NCBI RefSeq assembly: GCF_024223415.1
Contig: NZ_CP100500.1
Length of the DNA: 64,000 nt
Source: Escherichia coli
Lineage (GTDB): Bacteria; Pseudomonadota; Gammaproteobacteria; Enterobacterales; Enterobacteriaceae
Strand: one strand, 5' to 3'
How positions within the stretch are numbered: position 1 is the first letter of the stretch; each line of letters begins with the position of its first letter. This document shows positions 25,419 to 31,647 of this stretch, in pieces. The notes under the pieces were generated by a model, which searched no databases, was not told the DNA's origin, and saw only the letters and a program-made list of their open reading frames with translations. Both the position numbers and the translations under genes were made by a program.

Positions 25419-27614
25419 ATGAGCATTCTCTCCATCCACGGCGTTCGCAGTTATCAGGGCGAAAGGCCAGTGGAGTTCGACTTGAGTAAGTATGTCACTC
25501 TTATCTATGGACAAAACGGCTCAGGAAAATCAACCGTTTCTGGTTACTTTTATAAGCATGGTCGTCCAGATTACAGCCAGTGCAGCCTGCGACCTCCACT
25601 GGATATGAACTACCTGGTGTTTAATCAGGAGTATGTAGACGATATTTTCAGCCAACCTTCTCAGCCGGGCATTTTCACTTTAAATAGTGAAAATGCAGAA
25701 ATTAAAACTGAAATAGATGCTCTGGAAGCGGAGAGTAAAGTTTTGTTTGCCCGGCGTGATGCTTTGGACGTGCAAAAACGCGACGTTGAGGGCATGGAAG
25801 AAAGTATTAAAAATGGCTCCGCAAAACAGATTTATAGTTCTACCGCAGAAATCAGAAAAACAGATTTATGGGATTTGATGTCTGGAACTAAACAGACCGA
25901 CAAACTTTTTCAGACCATCCTTGAACACACTGAAGTCGAAGATACTTCGACGCAGGAATTAACCGAAGAACTACACCGACTTGAAGCCAGTAAAGGCAAC
26001 CCTTACGCTTTGCTCGAAGCATTGCCAGCATCCCCTTTGAATGACAATGATATTGCGCTATTGATGCAACCTCTTATTCCAGCAGGTGATAGCCGTCTTG
26101 CTGCCGCAATTAACCAATTGGGCAACATTGACTGGGTGAGGAATGGACAGCAGTGGCTGAGTGATGACATTTGCCCATTTTGTCAAACGCCGATAGATGC
26201 CCGGCAACTTCAACAGGAAATCACTGCCCTTTTTGATACCTCATGGGAAGCTGCGATGGACCAGTTGCGGGAACTTCAGGCGCGATATCAATTCTGGCAC
26301 GATAAACCCGAACATATGCGGCAGTTAATAAAAACGTGTCCGTTAGTTGATCAGGAACATCCTGTTTATCTCTATCTACTTGAACTGGAGCAGGCGTATC
26401 AAAGAAATAAATTGCATATCGATGAGAAATTGACATCACCCTCTGCGTCGATTGCTGTTGAGGATCTTTCTGCTCTGGCTGGCAATGTCTCTGTGCAGAT
26501 AGCCAGTATTAATACAATAATAAGCGAACATAACCGAAAGGCTGAAAATTATCAGACTGAACGGGTTAGACTGAAACAGAGACTACTCAGTCATATCCGA
26601 AAACTGGCTACCGATACGATAATTAACCATGATGAACAACTAGCAGAACTTGCTGAAAAATTGGCAAAATTAACGGTGTCTCGGGATGAAATTACGGCCC
26701 AGCTTGATACGCTGAACGCAATTATTCGCGGTAAATCCAGCCTGATCGTCAATACGCAGGAAACGATTGAACGTATTAATCACAGCTTGGATAGCCTTGG
26801 AATCACTGGATTCCGCATTGCTCCCTATGACGATCGGGATGATTATCGTCTGGTGAGGGAAGGTGAGAACAGCGATACGCCTGTTTTTAGTAGTCTGAGT
26901 GAAGGGGAAAAGACGCTGATTGCTTTTCTCTATTTTCTGGAGACTTGCACAGGGAGAAAAAGTCGTGATGACAATGACCAACGAAAACGTTTAATTGTCA
27001 TTGATGATCCTATATCCAGCCTGTCGCAAAACTATGTTTTTGAAATAGCATCGTTGATCCAGCATCAGGTTATACGTGCCAGAATTGGTGAGAAAGTGAT
27101 TATTCTGACGCACAGCCTGTTTTTCTTTCAGGAGTTACTGCTTTCTGCGGAACGGAAGAAAAGGGCAGCGGGTTCTTGCCCACCAGAATGGACGCTTTAT
27201 CGGGTATCCAAATCCTTACATAGTTCTGCTTCCCTTGTTTCCGAAAAAGAATTACTGAACGACTATCAGGCACTCTGGTATGTCTTACGCCACGCCCAAA
27301 AAGATGACATTGCCAGTGTGGTGATCCCAAATACGATGCGGCAAATCCTTGAATACTATTTTGGTTTTTCGGGGAAAAGTGAGACGCTTCACCGGGCGCT
27401 TGAAACACTGGCGAGCGGGCCTGAAGGTGAACCTGGTTTCCGTATATTTGCTCGTTATCTAAATCGACATTCTCACCAGGATGCCCGCAATATCTCTCTT
27501 CATGAGGGGGCTTCGGTTGAACGCTATCTTACCTGGTTTAAGAAAGTATTCGAGGCGGCAAAGGATGAAGAGCATTACACATCAATGATGGAAAAGACGA
27601 CACAAACGACCTGA
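25419..27614 (+). CDS. rloC: RloC-like ATPase / putative anticodon nuclease (AAA_13 type with zinc hook)
   Basis: Walker A 'GQNGSGKST'. Coiled-coil insert with 'CPFC' (nt 26172-26183). Walker B 'LIVIDDPISSL'. C-terminal 'FARYLNRHSHQDARN'. Confidence 0.7.
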   Translation: MSILSIHGVRSYQGERPVEFDLSKYVTLIYGQNGSGKSTVSGYFYKHGRPDYSQCSLRPPLDMNYLVFNQEYVDDIFSQPSQPGIFTLNSENAEIKTEIDALEAESKVLFARRDALDVQKRDVEGMEESIKNGSAKQIYSSTAEIRKTDLWDLMSGTKQTDKLFQTILEHTEVEDTSTQELTEELHRLEASKGNPYALLEALPASPLNDNDIALLMQPLIPAGDSRLAAAINQLGNIDWVRNGQQWLSDDICPFCQTPIDARQLQQEITALFDTSWEAAMDQLRELQARYQFWHDKPEHMRQLIKTCPLVDQEHPVYLYLLELEQAYQRNKLHIDEKLTSPSASIAVEDLSALAGNVSVQIASINTIISEHNRKAENYQTERVRLKQRLLSHIRKLATDTIINHDEQLAELAEKLAKLTVSRDEITAQLDTLNAIIRGKSSLIVNTQETIERINHSLDSLGITGFRIAPYDDRDDYRLVREGENSDTPVFSSLSEGEKTLIAFLYFLETCTGRKSRDDNDQRKRLIVIDDPISSLSQNYVFEIASLIQHQVIRARIGEKVIILTHSLFFFQELLLSAERKKRAAGSCPPEWTLYRVSKSLHSSASLVSEKELLNDYQALWYVLRHAQKDDIASVVIPNTMRQILEYYFGFSGKSETLHRALETLASGPEGEPGFRIFARYLNRHSHQDARNISLHEGASVERYLTWFKKVFEAAKDEEHYTSMMEKTTQTT

Positions 27615-28743
27615 TTAACAACAGAAGAGGACCATCACCCCGGGATTAACCGTTAGCAGTTCGGCAAAGAGCGCATGTGCTGGCACACGTGCTCCCAGCG
27701 ACCAAAACGGAAACGCAGATACTGGTGAACCAGCACAGTTTTCTGTTTCATACCGGGCTCCTTTCTTTCGACGCCGACAAGCTGTCGGCGAGCCCCGTAC
27801 ACCTCGTACGAGCGTGACTATCGTGTAGAGGCTAAGGATCCCGGGGGATGGCTTCCGCTATCGTAGGCGATTTCATTTGATGATTCAATCTTTGCTTTGG
27901 ATAACAATTAATTGAGATGGTCGTATTTTAGTATTAGCACTGTATGTCTTAGCTATAGTGCTGCTGAAATGACCAATTCGGGAACCGTGATGGTTTCCTG
28001 GAAACTCTCTTGCTTATTTTACGATGCTGGCCGATTATCACAAAACGTTGCTTAAACGCTGATTGGATATGGTGCTTTGTGGCAGTCATTCGCTTGTCTG
28101 ACGTTGCCATGGCTTACATTTGATGTAGCCAATGTAGAAGCCGCTTGGTGAATTGTTCTATGACATGGTCTACTACTTCGTTGTGGAAAATGAAGATGCG
28201 GTACCGGGTATGTACCATTGATGGTGAGAGGCTTATCGACGAATGGACCGTACGATATTGCTTGGCTGGAAAGGTGTGTGAAGCATTGTAGATTTACATT
28301 CACAAAATCGCGAGAAAATCTACAAACAACTCTATTTCCAGAAAAATGAGTTTCCCCTTTCTGCGCCAGAAATAAAGGCGTAATCTCCCTCCTGCACTAT
28401 GTTGTCGTGGACAACTCCCTTGCTTCATGGTCTGCAAGAAGCCCCTGATTTATCAGGATGACCAGCCCTTTCTACCGGTACGACCTCCGCAATACCGGAA
28501 CGCGAAAGCGTTTGAGGCTAAGAGTACATACACATGAACGGCTCCATCGTCATCGCTTAACGGCAACAGCCTTCACCGGCTGAACGGCCTCTCTTTGCCG
28601 GAATTTTCCTGGCCCACTTATACCCTGCTGATAACCAGCGCCTTTTTACATGACGGGCTGCGGCCTGCATTGCCGAAGGCTTTGCTGCCGCGTGACCGTC
28701 ATCCTGCACCAGAGTGTTAATTTTCAGACCCTGCGCCAGACCA

Positions 28744-28782
28744 GGGCGTCAGTCGCTCACGCGCAGTGAGAGACTGACGCCC
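28744..28782. repeat. Strong isolated hairpin (about 16 bp stem with one mismatch, 5-nt loop)
   Basis: GGGCGTCAGTC-G-CTCAC gcgca GTGAG-A-GACTGACGCCC, in an ORF-poor stretch. Confidence 0.6.
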
Positions 28783-29132
28783 GCAGAAATTTCCATCTGC
28801 ACCAGTCATATCAACTGTTCCAGCCACAGGCGAGCTTCTGACGTCGCTTTTCAGCATTTATCTCAACCATTCATTCACAAAAGGAGAACATGAGCCAGTA
28901 CCGGAGGAGGACCACCAGGACGGTCCGGGGGATGACCAGCTCACGCTGGCGGCTGCTCTGAGAGCACAACCGATACCCCGCAAAACCTCAACAGCCGTCG
29001 CCCCGGCGCTCAGGTACTGCTCGCAGCCCCGACAAAAATCAGGGGCTATCGGCCTACGCGCCGGGGAAAGCTGTATCCGTTGTTTGTTGTGGTTTTGTGA
29101 AAATCAGGAGCGAGAGAAGAGGAAAACGTAAA

Positions 29133-30014
29133 ATGGGTATGCTGGAAAGAGAGATGAAAAACCTGGCGCGGCAGGCTGGCGGGTCGCACAAGACTGTCCA
29201 TGACCGTATCGCCATGGCAGGACGTTTCTGCGAACGCCTGATGGAACTGAACGTTCAGATACGCTATGTCCACCATTTAAAGGCGAAGCATATTGAGGCG
29301 TATATTCAGATGCGGCTGGCGCAGGGGATTCAGAAAAATACGCTGCATAACGAAACGGCGGCTATCCGTAAAATCCTGACGCAGGCCGGGCGCGAAAAGC
29401 TGGCGCAGAGTGAACGGATATCGAATAAATCGCTGGGGCTGGCTGGCGTATCCCGCAATGGTACGCGGAAAGCCATCACGCCGGAATATTATCAACAGAT
29501 GGCAGAGGCTGCCCGGCTGAAAGATGCGGGGCTGGCGGCGGCGCTGGAACTGACGCGGCTGATGGGGCTACGCTCTCAGGAGGCAGTACGCTGTTCCGGT
29601 TCGCTGAAAACCTGGCGCGAAGCACTGGAGAAAGGTGATACCCGGCTAACCGTGGTACTCGGTACCAAAGGTGGACGGCCCCGTGACACGATTATTCAGG
29701 ATACTGGCGCAGTTAAACAGGCGCTGGATAAGGCCATCGTGGTGGCAGAACGGCGCAACGGCAGGCTGATTGATGCGGCGAGCCTTAAACAGGCAATGAA
29801 ATACTGGCGCAACCAGACTTTGCGTATGGGGCTGACGGGCAAATACTCCCCGCACTCACTGCGCTACGCCTGGGCGCAGGACGATATCTGCCGGTATCTG
29901 GCGCAGGGGTTCAGCGAAAAAGAAGCGCTGGCGATGGTGGCAATGGACCTAGGGCATGGCGACGGGCGTGGTCGCTGGGTGAAGCAGGTGTATGCACGGA
30001 ATGATGAAGCGTGA
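29133..30014 (+). CDS. Tyrosine-recombinase-like 'integrase domain' protein
   Basis: Candidate catalytic residues are in order: 'GLRSQEA' (R), 'TKGGRPR' (K), 'HSLRYAWA' (HxxR), 'LGHGDGRGRWVKQVY' (H...Y). The ATG at 29133 follows GAGGAAAA. Confidence 0.6.
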   Translation: MGMLEREMKNLARQAGGSHKTVHDRIAMAGRFCERLMELNVQIRYVHHLKAKHIEAYIQMRLAQGIQKNTLHNETAAIRKILTQAGREKLAQSERISNKSLGLAGVSRNGTRKAITPEYYQQMAEAARLKDAGLAAALELTRLMGLRSQEAVRCSGSLKTWREALEKGDTRLTVVLGTKGGRPRDTIIQDTGAVKQALDKAIVVAERRNGRLIDAASLKQAMKYWRNQTLRMGLTGKYSPHSLRYAWAQDDICRYLAQGFSEKEALAMVAMDLGHGDGRGRWVKQVYARNDEA

Positions 30015-30144
30015 TTTTTTGCTGGCGCAGCGAAAGGAAAAAGGCCAAAGGGTAAAGGTGGGTTAAGGGTAACAGCTCCTTACCGGAAAGGGCCAAAGGG
30101 TTGGGACTGGCGCAGATCGACGTCTATCCACGGATATCTGGCGC

Positions 30145-30180
30145 AAATAAAAAGCAGATCCCTGATGCAGTGGATCTGCT
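30145..30180 (-). terminator. Rho-independent terminator downstream of the integrase (minus strand)
   Basis: Stem AGCAGATCC (30153-30161) / GGATCTGCT (30172-30180), followed on the minus strand by TTTTTATTT. Confidence 0.65.
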
Positions 30181-30195
30181 TTCCGGCATTGTCCG

Positions 30196-31463
30196 TTAGC
30201 TGGCGCAGGCCGCCTGAATCTGCCTGTCATACCGATACGGCGGGATAAATTTCTGCCGACAGGCGTCGAGATAATCCGACCACCACTGCATCATCTGTGT
30301 GCGCTCGTCGAGGTGCTCCGCCTTGTGGATATACGCGGCACGAACGTGATTACGCTCCTGATGGCTCATTTGTCGCTCCACGGCGTCTTTTGACCAGCGC
30401 CCGGACTCGATCAGCGCACTACAGGCCATCGTGCGGAAACCGTGACCGCAAACATCTGCCTGTGTGTTGTAGCCCATAACCCGCAGTGCTTTGTTGATGG
30501 TGTTTTCGCTCATCGGCTTACGCGGATCGTGGTCGCCGGGAAACAGTAACTCACTACTGCCGGACAACAGTTTTAACTGTTTGAGTATTGTCACCGCCTG
30601 CGCTGACAACGGCACCAGATGCTGCATCTTCATCTTTGCGCCGCGATTTGAATAACGCACGCCCGGAATCGGCTCCCGCTCCGCCGGGATGGTCCACATT
30701 GCGCCATCCAGATTGATCTCCGTCCAGCGGGCAAAACGTAGCTCGCTGGAACGGATAAAGATCAGCAGATTAAGCTGTACCGCCAGACGGGTTAACAGCC
30801 TGCCGGAATAGCCTTCAATACGCTCCAGCATCTCCGGTATTTTCTCCAGCGGCAGGGCGGGGTAGTGGTTTTTGGGCGGCGGTGCGATAGCCCCGGTCAG
30901 ATCGTTCGCCGGATTGCTGTCGATTATCCCCTCCTGCACCGCGTAACGCATGATTGCCGTGGTGCGCTGCTGAATCCGTGCAGCGGTCTCCAGCGTACCT
31001 TTTCGTTCCGCCACCCGCAGCGGGATCAGCAGATCGGCAGTTTTCAAATCAGAGACCGGAATTTGCCGATCAGTGGAAAAACATGCAGCTCCAGCGAGCG
31101 CAGGACTTTGGCGGCATGGGCTTCATTCCAGCGGATATTGCCCGCTACCCACTTACGGGCGATATCTTCAAAGGTGTTGCCGCTTTTACGTGCAAACTTC
31201 TCCTGCTGTTTTTTCACGCCGGGATCGCTGCCTGCGCTCAATACCGAGCGGGCATCCTCGCGCAGCTTGCGGGCATTTGCCAGAGAAACGGCCGGGTAAG
31301 CACCAAACGCCAGCTTCTTCTCTTTACCGCCGAAGCGGTACTTGAGGTGCCAGAGTTTAGATCCGTTGGGCTTTATCAGCAGGTACAGACCCTGCGCATC
31401 GCTGAGTTTCCAGGATTTATCAAGCGGCTTTGCATTACGGATGGCGGTATCGGTGAGGGACAT
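30196..31463 (-). pseudogene. int: P4-type tyrosine integrase, split by a 1-nt frameshift near 31057-31061
   Basis: The N-terminal ORF 'MSLTDTAIRNAKP...FPLIGKFRSLI*' continues in another frame as '(PVSDL)KTADLLIPLRVAERKGTLE...GHGFRTMA...'. It lies next to the tRNA-Phe repeat. Confidence 0.85.
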
Positions 31464-31625
31464 AGTGGGGCTCCATAGTTTATCGAACCGACGGGCCCCC
31501 AATTAAGCCCCCAAAAACTATGGATGTCAAAAAATCTGGCAGTACCTGTTGGTACTCCAGACTCTTTGTAACTAACTGATTTTTTGATGTTTCAGGACTC
31601 ATAGAGACGCCATGAAACTAAATAG

Positions 31626-31647
31626 TGGTGCCGGACTCGGAATCGAA
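31626..31647 (-). repeat. Partial tRNA-Phe 3' end (22 nt, one C missing): int-proximal att repeat
   Basis: 'TGGTGCC-GGACTCGGAATCGAA' against the reverse complement of the tRNA-Phe 3' end. It lies ~160 nt upstream of the int start. Confidence 0.8.

Follow-up and report, generated by a model that had tools for sequence, protein, structure and literature searches.

Here we present the analysis of positions 27615-29132 in a 64,000-nucleotide window (the whole stretch of DNA analysed) of the Escherichia coli (E. coli) contig NZ_CP100500.1, a 1.5-kb region directly before a gene annotated as an integrase. Overall, we read its right part, 28293-29132, with moderate confidence and by analogy with Salmonella genomic island 1 (SGI1), as the non-coding half of a mobilisation (mob) module, which would be made up of an inverted repeat resembling an origin of transfer (oriT), an RNA and an MpsA-like relaxase gene. 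The reading of 28293-30014 as such a module is suggested because the order of the parts matches that in SGI1, with an inverted repeat followed by a structured RNA and an MpsA-like gene. The initial annotation had treated 27615-29132 as one unit, being either decayed DNA of a mobile element or a non-coding or structural site serving the adjacent recombinase-like gene. The stretch is instead a composite of three parts with 28293-29132 as its functional core, and a small hairpin counted with the unit is tied to the upstream ATPase gene. The second proposal fits the core well, which travels with the gene, contains a covarying hairpin and precedes a protein of the MpsA/MOB_M kind. The features of the module are the following.

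28293..29132, plus strand: conserved non-coding module before the MOB_M-like gene, travelling with the gene
28361-28369: fifth upstream copy of a 9-mer
28400..28545, plus strand: degenerate STAXI-like stretch (Rfam RF01728), sub-threshold at 18.2 bits
28704..28823, minus strand: four copies of the 9-mer flanking the hairpin, at 28704, 28731, 28797 and 28815, reading CTGCRCCAG / CTGTTCCAG on the plus strand
28744..28782, no strand assigned: inverted repeat or hairpin with the core GCGTCA(C/G)...(G/C)TGACGC, candidate oriT core
28881..28886, plus strand: AAGGAG, similar to a Shine-Dalgarno (SD) sequence, conserved, directly 5' of EFASI and 3 nt before an ATG
28890..29023, plus strand: EFASI RNA motif (Rfam RF02957), whose first 69 nt are the mini-ORF (open reading frame) discussed below
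29001..29066, plus strand: helix X, CCCCGGCGC (29001-29009) with GCGCCGGGG (29058-29066), identified by covariation
29133..30014, plus strand: gene with a tyrosine-recombinase fold, of the MpsA/MOB_M relaxase kind, 293 aa, annotated 'integrase domain-containing protein'
29316, 29400, 29704 and 29898, plus strand: 9-mers within the gene
30022..30208, plus strand: 9-mers downstream of the gene, CTGGCGCAG at 30022, 30107 and 30200 and CTGGCGCAA at 30138

Similarity searches divide the 1.5 kb into the segments 27615-27935, 27936-28292 and 28293-29132. The longest ORF within them has 83 aa, and RefSeq/PGAP places no feature there in any of the 20 E. coli chromosomes in which the stretch is found at >=99.7% identity, which bears out the earlier remark that no credible ORF is present. 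The third segment is also found in >130 more E. coli chromosomes at ~93% identity and, together with the downstream gene, at 60-80% identity in ~680 more. Its conservation is visible in alignments of homologous loci, which were drawn from E. coli genomes, one genome per species, plasmids and metagenomes, and which are numbered with L below. Small ORFs on the minus strand, given in some genomes as PGAP 'hypothetical proteins' of 49-58 aa, are taken as spurious because 1-nt indels between clades break every frame in the module alignment.

The gene behind the module is the first point of evidence. Its 293-aa product matches PF12835 at 2.7e-58 (profile positions 1-149) and PF12834 at 1.5e-34. PF12835 is the signature of the SGI1 protein MpsA, an atypical relaxase of the tyrosine-recombinase type described as 'INT_DTR_like' (PMC10484663). 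An SGI1-family locus was found via a knock-out primer in Nagy 2021, Table S3, and its MpsA (321 aa) matches PF12835 at 4e-11. The two proteins are homologous: BLASTP aligns them over 289 aa with 24% identity (E = 2e-7) and hhalign gives 93.7%, versus E = 0.59 for the window protein with a classical P4-type integrase. In this comparison, made with the SGI1-family MpsA only, the window protein is closer to a characterised MOB_M member than to an ordinary integrase; a search for homologous proteins returned close relatives only and no named MpsA. Judged from its sequence, the gene product is a distant MpsA homologue of the MOB_M kind of relaxase, for which relaxase activity is predicted. A 2026 preprint (bioRxiv 10.64898/2026.01.13.699239) describes the MOB_M relaxases, with TcpM of pCW3, MobK of pIGRK and MpsA of SGI1 among the members, as the commonest relaxases in chromosomes; 96% of them adjoin an integrase, and they are frequently annotated as integrases themselves. 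It gives the profile cut-off in CONJscan as 84 bits and takes the upstream intergenic region as the candidate oriT ('oriT_rM'). In accordance with this, the window protein shares the tyrosine-recombinase fold, the integrase annotation, the chromosomal site and the true integrase as neighbour, and a large conserved intergenic region also lies upstream of its gene.

The comparison with SGI1 concerns the order of the parts; for SGI1, the succession oriT, sgm-sRNA, mpsA has been demonstrated by experiment. One strand of SGI1 carries a promoter, oriT, the core of the small RNA sgm-sRNA, a hairpin, mpsA and mpsB in this order (PMC6414798, PMC9299015), and its oriT comprises 125 bp with three inverted repeats (Kiss 2019, PMC6414798; Nagy 2021, PMC9299015). 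The sgm-sRNA is essential for SGI1 transfer and acts in trans, not via the expression of mpsAB (PMC9299015). The window has the same parts in the same order and on the same strand, namely an inverted-repeat region, a structured RNA region of 130-280 nt and a PF12835 gene, and the inverted repeat lies ~350 nt from the start codon in both. Like sgm-sRNA, EFASI is situated between the oriT-like repeat and the relaxase gene, on the strand of the gene (plus). The two systems differ in that an MpsB-like N-terminal domain (PF12834) is fused to the window protein, and in the type of island, the window having a P4-type integrase and a tRNA-type site.

The RNA part is identified by its Rfam match. A scan of Rfam, which the initial annotation had suggested, detects EFASI at 28890-29023 with 112.7 bits (E = 1.5e-23; the gathering score is 51.2), covering the full model (1-133/133) and beginning exactly at the ATG of the mini-ORF (28890); its 3' end lies 109 nt from the PF12834/PF12835 gene. 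The name stands for 'Enterobacteriaceae, Frequently Around STAXI and Integrases', and in the view of Rfam EFASI is a likely trans-acting small RNA (sRNA) (text quoted in PMC12370729). EFASI and STAXI RNA have been detected in E. coli vesicles by reverse-transcription quantitative PCR (PMC12370729). The window copy agrees with the family in its full-length match, at twice the gathering score, and in its position before an integrase-like gene, and deviates from it in nothing; the STAXI-like stretch upstream of it is a sub-threshold hit only. What we add is helix X, the AAGGAG at the 5' side and the recognition of the 'integrase' as an MpsA/MOB_M-like protein. Of 26 other loci put through the Rfam scan, 25 have EFASI 55-135 nt before the homologous gene and on its strand, with protein identities from 100% down to 47%. 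The lone exception, the metagenomic locus L045, has an insertion at 1161-1283 with isrC (minus strand), which replaces the 5' half of EFASI. The EFASI alignment contains many G-U pairs on the plus strand as well as recognisable GNRA and UUCG loops; these features indicate that EFASI would act as an RNA of the gene's strand, that is, as a plus-strand RNA.

The same 5' part of EFASI was noted earlier as an Arg-rich mini-ORF of 22 codons, preceded by AAGGAG. The ATG at 28890 and the AAGGAG at 28881-28886 are there, while the ORF has 23 codons (28890-28958) followed by TGA, and its coding role does not hold. A small Arg-rich translation product, either a leader peptide or a small protein, would agree with the AAGGAG 3 nt before the ATG in the window and with the ATG present in 41 of 73 unique homologues; yet 29 of the 73 have no start codon, two entire clades being covered by these, and where present the ORF ranges from 8 to >50 codons with stops and frames differing among homologues. 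Substitutions in this stretch preserve the pairs of the EFASI closing stem and not the codons. Since neither start nor frame is conserved and base pairs are kept rather than codons, the mini-ORF is not a gene but the non-coding 5' part of EFASI, and a translated peptide seems very improbable to us. The SD-like AAGGAG itself is kept in 70 of the 73 unique homologues, 29 of these 70 lacking a start codon behind it, so that it is not tied to a conserved start, and no complementarity is found between it and the invariant ACCUCAAC loop.

Upstream of EFASI lies the strong hairpin pointed out at the outset, which proves to be well beyond chance and conserved with covariation. Its two arms, 28744-28760 and 28766-28782, are joined by 16 pairs with a loop of 5 nt between them (-32.7 kcal/mol), the z-score is -6.57, and none of 200 dinucleotide shuffles folds equally well. 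The inverted repeat, with the core GCGTCA(C/G)TTT...AAA(G/C)TGACGC, is shown to be present in five clades, including the Klebsiella/Pantoea and soil metagenome loci, and in all clades it lies between STAXI and EFASI, 98-187 nt before the latter. The order STAXI, hairpin, EFASI and gene is constant in the Escherichia, Salmonella, Klebsiella, Pantoea and soil-metagenome clades. In an alignment of 19 sequences, both-sided changes occur in 9 of 17 hairpin pairs and the core CGTCA/TGACG is invariant; on the whole 87.8% of the hairpin cells are paired, versus 31-47% after sliding the partner columns. The upper stem is wholly different among clades and always paired (CTCAC/GTGAG, CCGC/GCGG, GTCGC/GCGAC, CCCG/CGGG). 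Because the upper stem varies yet pairs while the core stays fixed, the pattern speaks for a structure, extruded or single-stranded, whose base is sequence-specific, rather than for a plain double-stranded operator. No Rfam family covers the hairpin, and no T-run follows it on either strand; an intrinsic terminator was considered and rejected, the T/U run being missing and the hairpin unlisted by the terminator scan. The repeat lies in the upstream intergenic region, 351 nt before the ATG of the gene, with direct 9-mer repeats on both sides, as is expected of an oriT of the MOB_M type (inverted repeats with or without direct repeats), and it may be the core of the island's oriT.

Joining EFASI to its downstream leader we identify a further helix, called helix X, which is missing from the Rfam model. 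Its 5' strand CCCCGGCGC is conserved yet unpaired in the Rfam EFASI structure, and between its two strands lie the 3' strand of the closing stem of EFASI and a small hairpin at 29025-29047. Among 36 sequences, pairing is kept in 98.5% of its cells and compensatory changes are seen at 5 of 9 pairs, which exceeds every helix of the Rfam structure in the same alignment. Its variants are CTCCGGCGT/ACGCCGGAG, TTCCGGCGC/GCGCCGGAA and CCCCGATG/CATCGGGG, and CTCTGGCGC/GCGCCAGAG in the soil clade. As its 5' strand and the closing stem's 3' strand are only 1 nt apart, helix X would be either an H-type pseudoknot stacked on the closing stem or an alternative fold. By this covariation, the functional RNA is predicted to reach at least 43 nt past the 3' end of the Rfam model, towards the gene.

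Another possibility is that EFASI and helix X are only a cis-acting 5' leader or RNA switch, binding a protein or ligand and controlling termination or translation of the relaxase or recombinase mRNA, with the upstream hairpin as a signal for RNA processing or termination. The constant position of EFASI, on the gene's strand and 55-135 nt before the start codon, would suit such a leader, as would the SD-like AAGGAG abutting the closing stem and helix X, through which a highly conserved EFASI segment with no other pairing partner is connected to the leader. In the clade of L004 a U-rich run (TGTTTGTTTTTTG), resembling a terminator, even follows 2 nt past the 3' strand of helix X; however, such a run is poor or absent in the window and in the Klebsiella and Pantoea clades. 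Moreover, the RNA of SGI1 acts in trans with mpsAB expression independent of it (PMC9299015), the Rfam curators favour a trans sRNA for EFASI (as quoted in PMC12370729), and the sequence-invariant core of the upstream inverted repeat would be left unexplained. We therefore consider a cis leader a rather doubtful alternative to the mobilisation module, though the most serious one.

A strand-polar 9-mer, CTGGYGCAG, accompanies the module and changes its orientation at EFASI, where the sign of the GC skew flips too. CTGGCGCAG occurs 13 times in the window versus 0.74 expected, with nine occurrences within 28361-30208. The positions around the hairpin, 4-5 nt before and 14-22 nt after it, are conserved in the module alignment. 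The looser form CTGG(N)(G/A)CAG was counted in 34 non-redundant loci, in the 600 nt before the EFASI start and the 1800 nt rightwards from it. In the upstream part the minus strand has 114 copies and the plus strand 3; in the rightward part, spanning the gene and the AT-rich non-coding DNA beyond, the plus strand has 237 and the minus strand 3. The copies within the gene occupy more than one frame, and the downstream spacers have no ORFs. Our best guess is that the 9-mers are putative binding sites for the relaxase-like protein. They resemble KOPS (FtsK-orienting polar sequences) with dif, and the arm sites of phage attP, in being co-oriented on each side and flipping at one point, here EFASI, but differ in sequence and in scale (2.4 kb), so that we speak of a resemblance only. 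The 9-mer is absent from the Klebsiella/Pantoea clade and from the soil clade as well as from the SGI1-family locus, and is thus a clade-specific addition.

STAXI, the other Rfam motif of these loci, is present in the window at best as a decayed copy. The stretch 28400-28545 lies 345-490 nt upstream of EFASI, and its 18.2 bits stay below the family's gathering score of 40.5 (E = 0.24 with 1.3 kb searched); in a 7-kb scan no STAXI is found at E<=1. It shares the relative position of the family, and its first hairpin, UGUUGUCGUGGACAAC, fits the consensus, but in score it differs as given. A true STAXI occupies the equivalent place in L012, L014-L016 and L081-L094, and the motif lies 220-610 nt upstream of EFASI in the Salmonella, Klebsiella, Pantoea and soil-metagenome loci. 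Elements of Pantoea and Klebsiella have a second copy downstream of the MOB_M-like gene (L015 3943-4093, L014 4936-5052), next to antirestriction and DUF3085 genes, and because of this second copy STAXI is repeated along these elements, which resemble integrative and conjugative elements (ICEs). In addition, orphan 174-bp copies of 28490-28667 (~76% identity) are found in decayed parts of other E. coli pathogenicity islands, for example in L102 5001-5174 (E. coli strain 4069) and H55-H64, with iro genes and insertion sequence remnants as neighbours; these truncated remnants have no hairpin, EFASI or gene.

Several results weigh against the mobilisation module. Upstream of PF12835 homologues with 35-37% identity (Thiothrix, Caballeronia and Burkholderia plasmids), EFASI is absent by Rfam and by our own model R1, so the proteins of this family do not need EFASI in general. 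The Rfam model at E<=10 detects no EFASI within 1.1 kb upstream of mpsA in the SGI1-family locus, and R1 with filters off finds nothing upstream of that gene; we rejected EFASI as a homologue of sgm-sRNA on these searches, and since the two are not detectably related the parallel with SGI1 is positional only. On reading by eye, the SGI1-family oriT stretch shows no obvious resemblance to the window region either, and the 9-mer is missing from the SGI1-family locus as said. A scan of 27400-29400 finds no sigma-70-like promoter on the plus strand, the promoter-like and terminator-like sites there being not more frequent than in shuffles, and inspection by hand for sigma-70, sigma-E and sigma-54 boxes around the invariant TCTGAC gives nothing convincing.

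Furthermore, the protein could be a true recombinase, because it retains the complete catalytic set of the recombinases: R147, K179, H241, R244, H275 and Y287 are invariant among homologues. It would then be a site-specific enzyme such as an island resolvase or invertase, with the inverted repeat as crossover site and the 9-mers as arm or accessory sites. A weak similarity to XerC (TIGR02224, E = 1.4e-4), the TGCGC that the 9-mer has in common with the XerC arm of dif, and the opposed orientation of the 9-mers, reminiscent of the P and P' arms in phage attP, fit this proposal. The arms of the repeat, however, are 15-22 bp apart, and the spacer is itself kept palindromic, unlike a crossover spacer of 6-8 bp; the 9-mers are scattered across a 2.4-kb stretch that takes in the gene, and three clades which keep the hairpin and EFASI lack them; neither a second partner site nor inverted or deleted variants are found among the aligned loci; and the closest characterised relative, MpsA, is a relaxase. 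We judge a recombinase unlikely.

Under the preferred reading as a mobilisation module, the parts would follow rightwards as a decayed STAXI, the inverted repeat with the 9-mers, AAGGAG with EFASI and helix X, and the relaxase gene, the whole belonging to a genomic island of the tRNA type with a P4-type integrase. We infer for it a course of transcription, nicking and transfer, with a requirement for the RNA, as follows. A helper conjugative element would provide the mating pore, and the MOB_M protein would recognise the island DNA and nick it at or beside the inverted repeat. A transcript of the gene's strand would cross the region and yield EFASI, acting as an RNA, which may be a transfer cofactor like sgm-sRNA, a controller of relaxase expression, or both. 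A wider proposal, which is possible but which we put forward tentatively, is that EFASI, helix X, the inverted repeat and STAXI are the nucleic-acid apparatus of the relaxosome in a large Enterobacterales clade of MOB_M, with EFASI as the counterpart of sgm-sRNA, an RNA cofactor for the processing or delivery of oriT, and the converging 9-mers as sites for loading or guiding the protein.

The EFASI motif of Rfam and the MOB_M kind of relaxase, long overlooked in enterobacterial chromosomes and recently recognised, are known already. Beyond current descriptions are the link of EFASI and STAXI to modules of the MOB_M/SGI1 type, the inverted repeat, helix X, the polar 9-mer and the ATPase-linked element reported below; the accessible part of the MOB_M preprint text mentions neither EFASI nor STAXI nor any RNA (bioRxiv 10.64898/2026.01.13.699239). 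One address thus joins two Rfam motifs and an inverted repeat in fixed order before an MpsA-like gene, which adjoins the integrase of islands with type VI secretion system (T6SS), Rhs and defence functions. To our knowledge, SGI1 is the only element known to need a small RNA for its conjugative mobilisation, and EFASI and STAXI have, as far as we know, been orphan motifs since their first description. If the parallel with SGI1 is true, EFASI gains a function and a testable handle on the movement of 'immobile' genomic islands is obtained; if the relaxosome proposal is true, both orphan motifs gain a function and RNA-dependent conjugative mobilisation would be general in many pathogenicity and defence islands. 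If the parallel is false, the region still contains a leader RNA, well defined and with strong covariation, that has one helix more than the Rfam model.

Below we report the two segments to the left of the module, together with the gene before them.

25419-27614: PDC-S06/AAA_13 ATPase gene, 731 aa, upstream neighbour of the following element
27640..27840, plus strand: structured non-coding element directly 3' of the PDC-S06/AAA_13 ATPase gene, identified by conservation and covariation
27936..28292, no strand assigned: AT-rich filler (GC ~0.40-0.44) with no recognisable features

The segment 27615-27935 is found with 97% identity in 11 further genomes, and its core 27660-27828 with ~75-80% identity in other chromosomes and plasmids. 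The comparison with plasmids, also suggested at the outset, shows that the element 27640-27840 recurs there after homologous ATPase genes: it follows an ATPase homologue in E. coli NC101 and in two plasmids, one of Rahnella and one of the E. coli IncHI1A type, and a Citrobacter freundii plasmid has a truncated copy, also after an ATPase homologue, so that chromosomes as well as plasmids of several genera are represented (copies at ~3000-3190 in L098, ~3000-3160 in L099, and ~3000-3170 in L100 and L101). Its alignment has ~75 invariant columns, and RNAalifold gives 42 pairs, 13 with compensatory changes; no Rfam match is found at E<=10. Among these pairs is the small hairpin CGCCGACA-agc-TGTCGGCG at 27772-27790, which is present as first noted, with -13.4 kcal/mol (z = -2.78). 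The hairpin is weak alone, 1 of 200 shuffles equalling it, is conserved in the homologous elements, and is followed by no T-run. Since the element always follows ATPase homologues and covaries as a structure, the small hairpin belongs to a separate ATPase-linked element, which is apparently undescribed and outside the relaxase module. The ATPase matches the PADLOC candidate defence family PDC-S06 at E = 3e-242, and its C-terminal part resembles PrrC; the element may be the RNA component of a candidate single-gene defence system.

The segment 27936-28292 is confined to the 20 genomes carrying the entire 1.5 kb, and the similarity search gives no plasmid matches to it. Of the earlier proposal of decayed mobile-element DNA, only this much is left: this part alone resembles unconserved filler, and no pseudogene remnant is found. 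That the entire stretch is functionless decayed DNA, a pseudogene or plasmid remnant, might be argued from this unconserved AT-rich part, the degenerate STAXI and the frameshifted integrase. Against it, conservation across genera, accompanied by compensatory changes in base pairs, is seen in two of the three segments, and the covariation counts refute such decay for 27640-27840 and 28293-29132. There is neither a conserved reading frame nor any protein-level similarity between the DNA 27615-29132 and the gene, and an inverted remnant of the gene was rejected likewise, tblastn and blastn of the gene against 27615-29132 returning only the 9-mer. A plain pseudogene remnant with an unconserved hairpin, which was named at the outset as the finding that would count against a functional site, is therefore not what is found, the hairpin being conserved and covarying, and we regard complete decay as scarcely credible.

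To the right of the relaxase-like gene lies the integrase of the island.

30196..31502, minus strand: P4-type tyrosine integrase of the island, frameshifted, in two ORFs (RefSeq 'frameshifted')

It matches Pfam Arm-DNA-bind_3, Phage_int_M and Phage_integrase, and in related loci the integrase adjoins tRNA-Asn or tRNA-Asp. Because it is frameshifted in the window, the element is probably no longer self-excising here, even if the mob module is intact. The sequence 31625-31646, GGTGCCGGACTCGGAATCGAA, reads, on the minus strand, like the 3' end of tRNA-Phe (pheV/pheU). It lies between the frameshifted integrase and an island resembling CP4 (DUF4942, CbtA/CbeA and others) and is probably an attachment (att) repeat between two tandemly inserted islands; ARAGORN finds no intact tRNA in the window.

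A few further RNAs and genes are seen in the window and in related islands. Besides EFASI, the only Rfam family above threshold in the window is the Hfq-binding RNA isrN (RF01396, 10025-10161, 72.2 bits). Related islands contain a cluster of immunity RNAs of the P4/P1 type, made up of isrK, the C4 antisense RNA and c4-a1b1 targets, and accompanied by genes of the ash family and helix-turn-helix genes near the module. This cluster is situated 1.2-1.9 kb upstream of EFASI in L003-L006, L008-L010 and L012, and downstream of the gene in L081-L094. In that place the window has defence genes, namely the PDC-S06 ATPase, AbiEii/AbiEi and a TerB-N/ATPase/DEAD helicase group.

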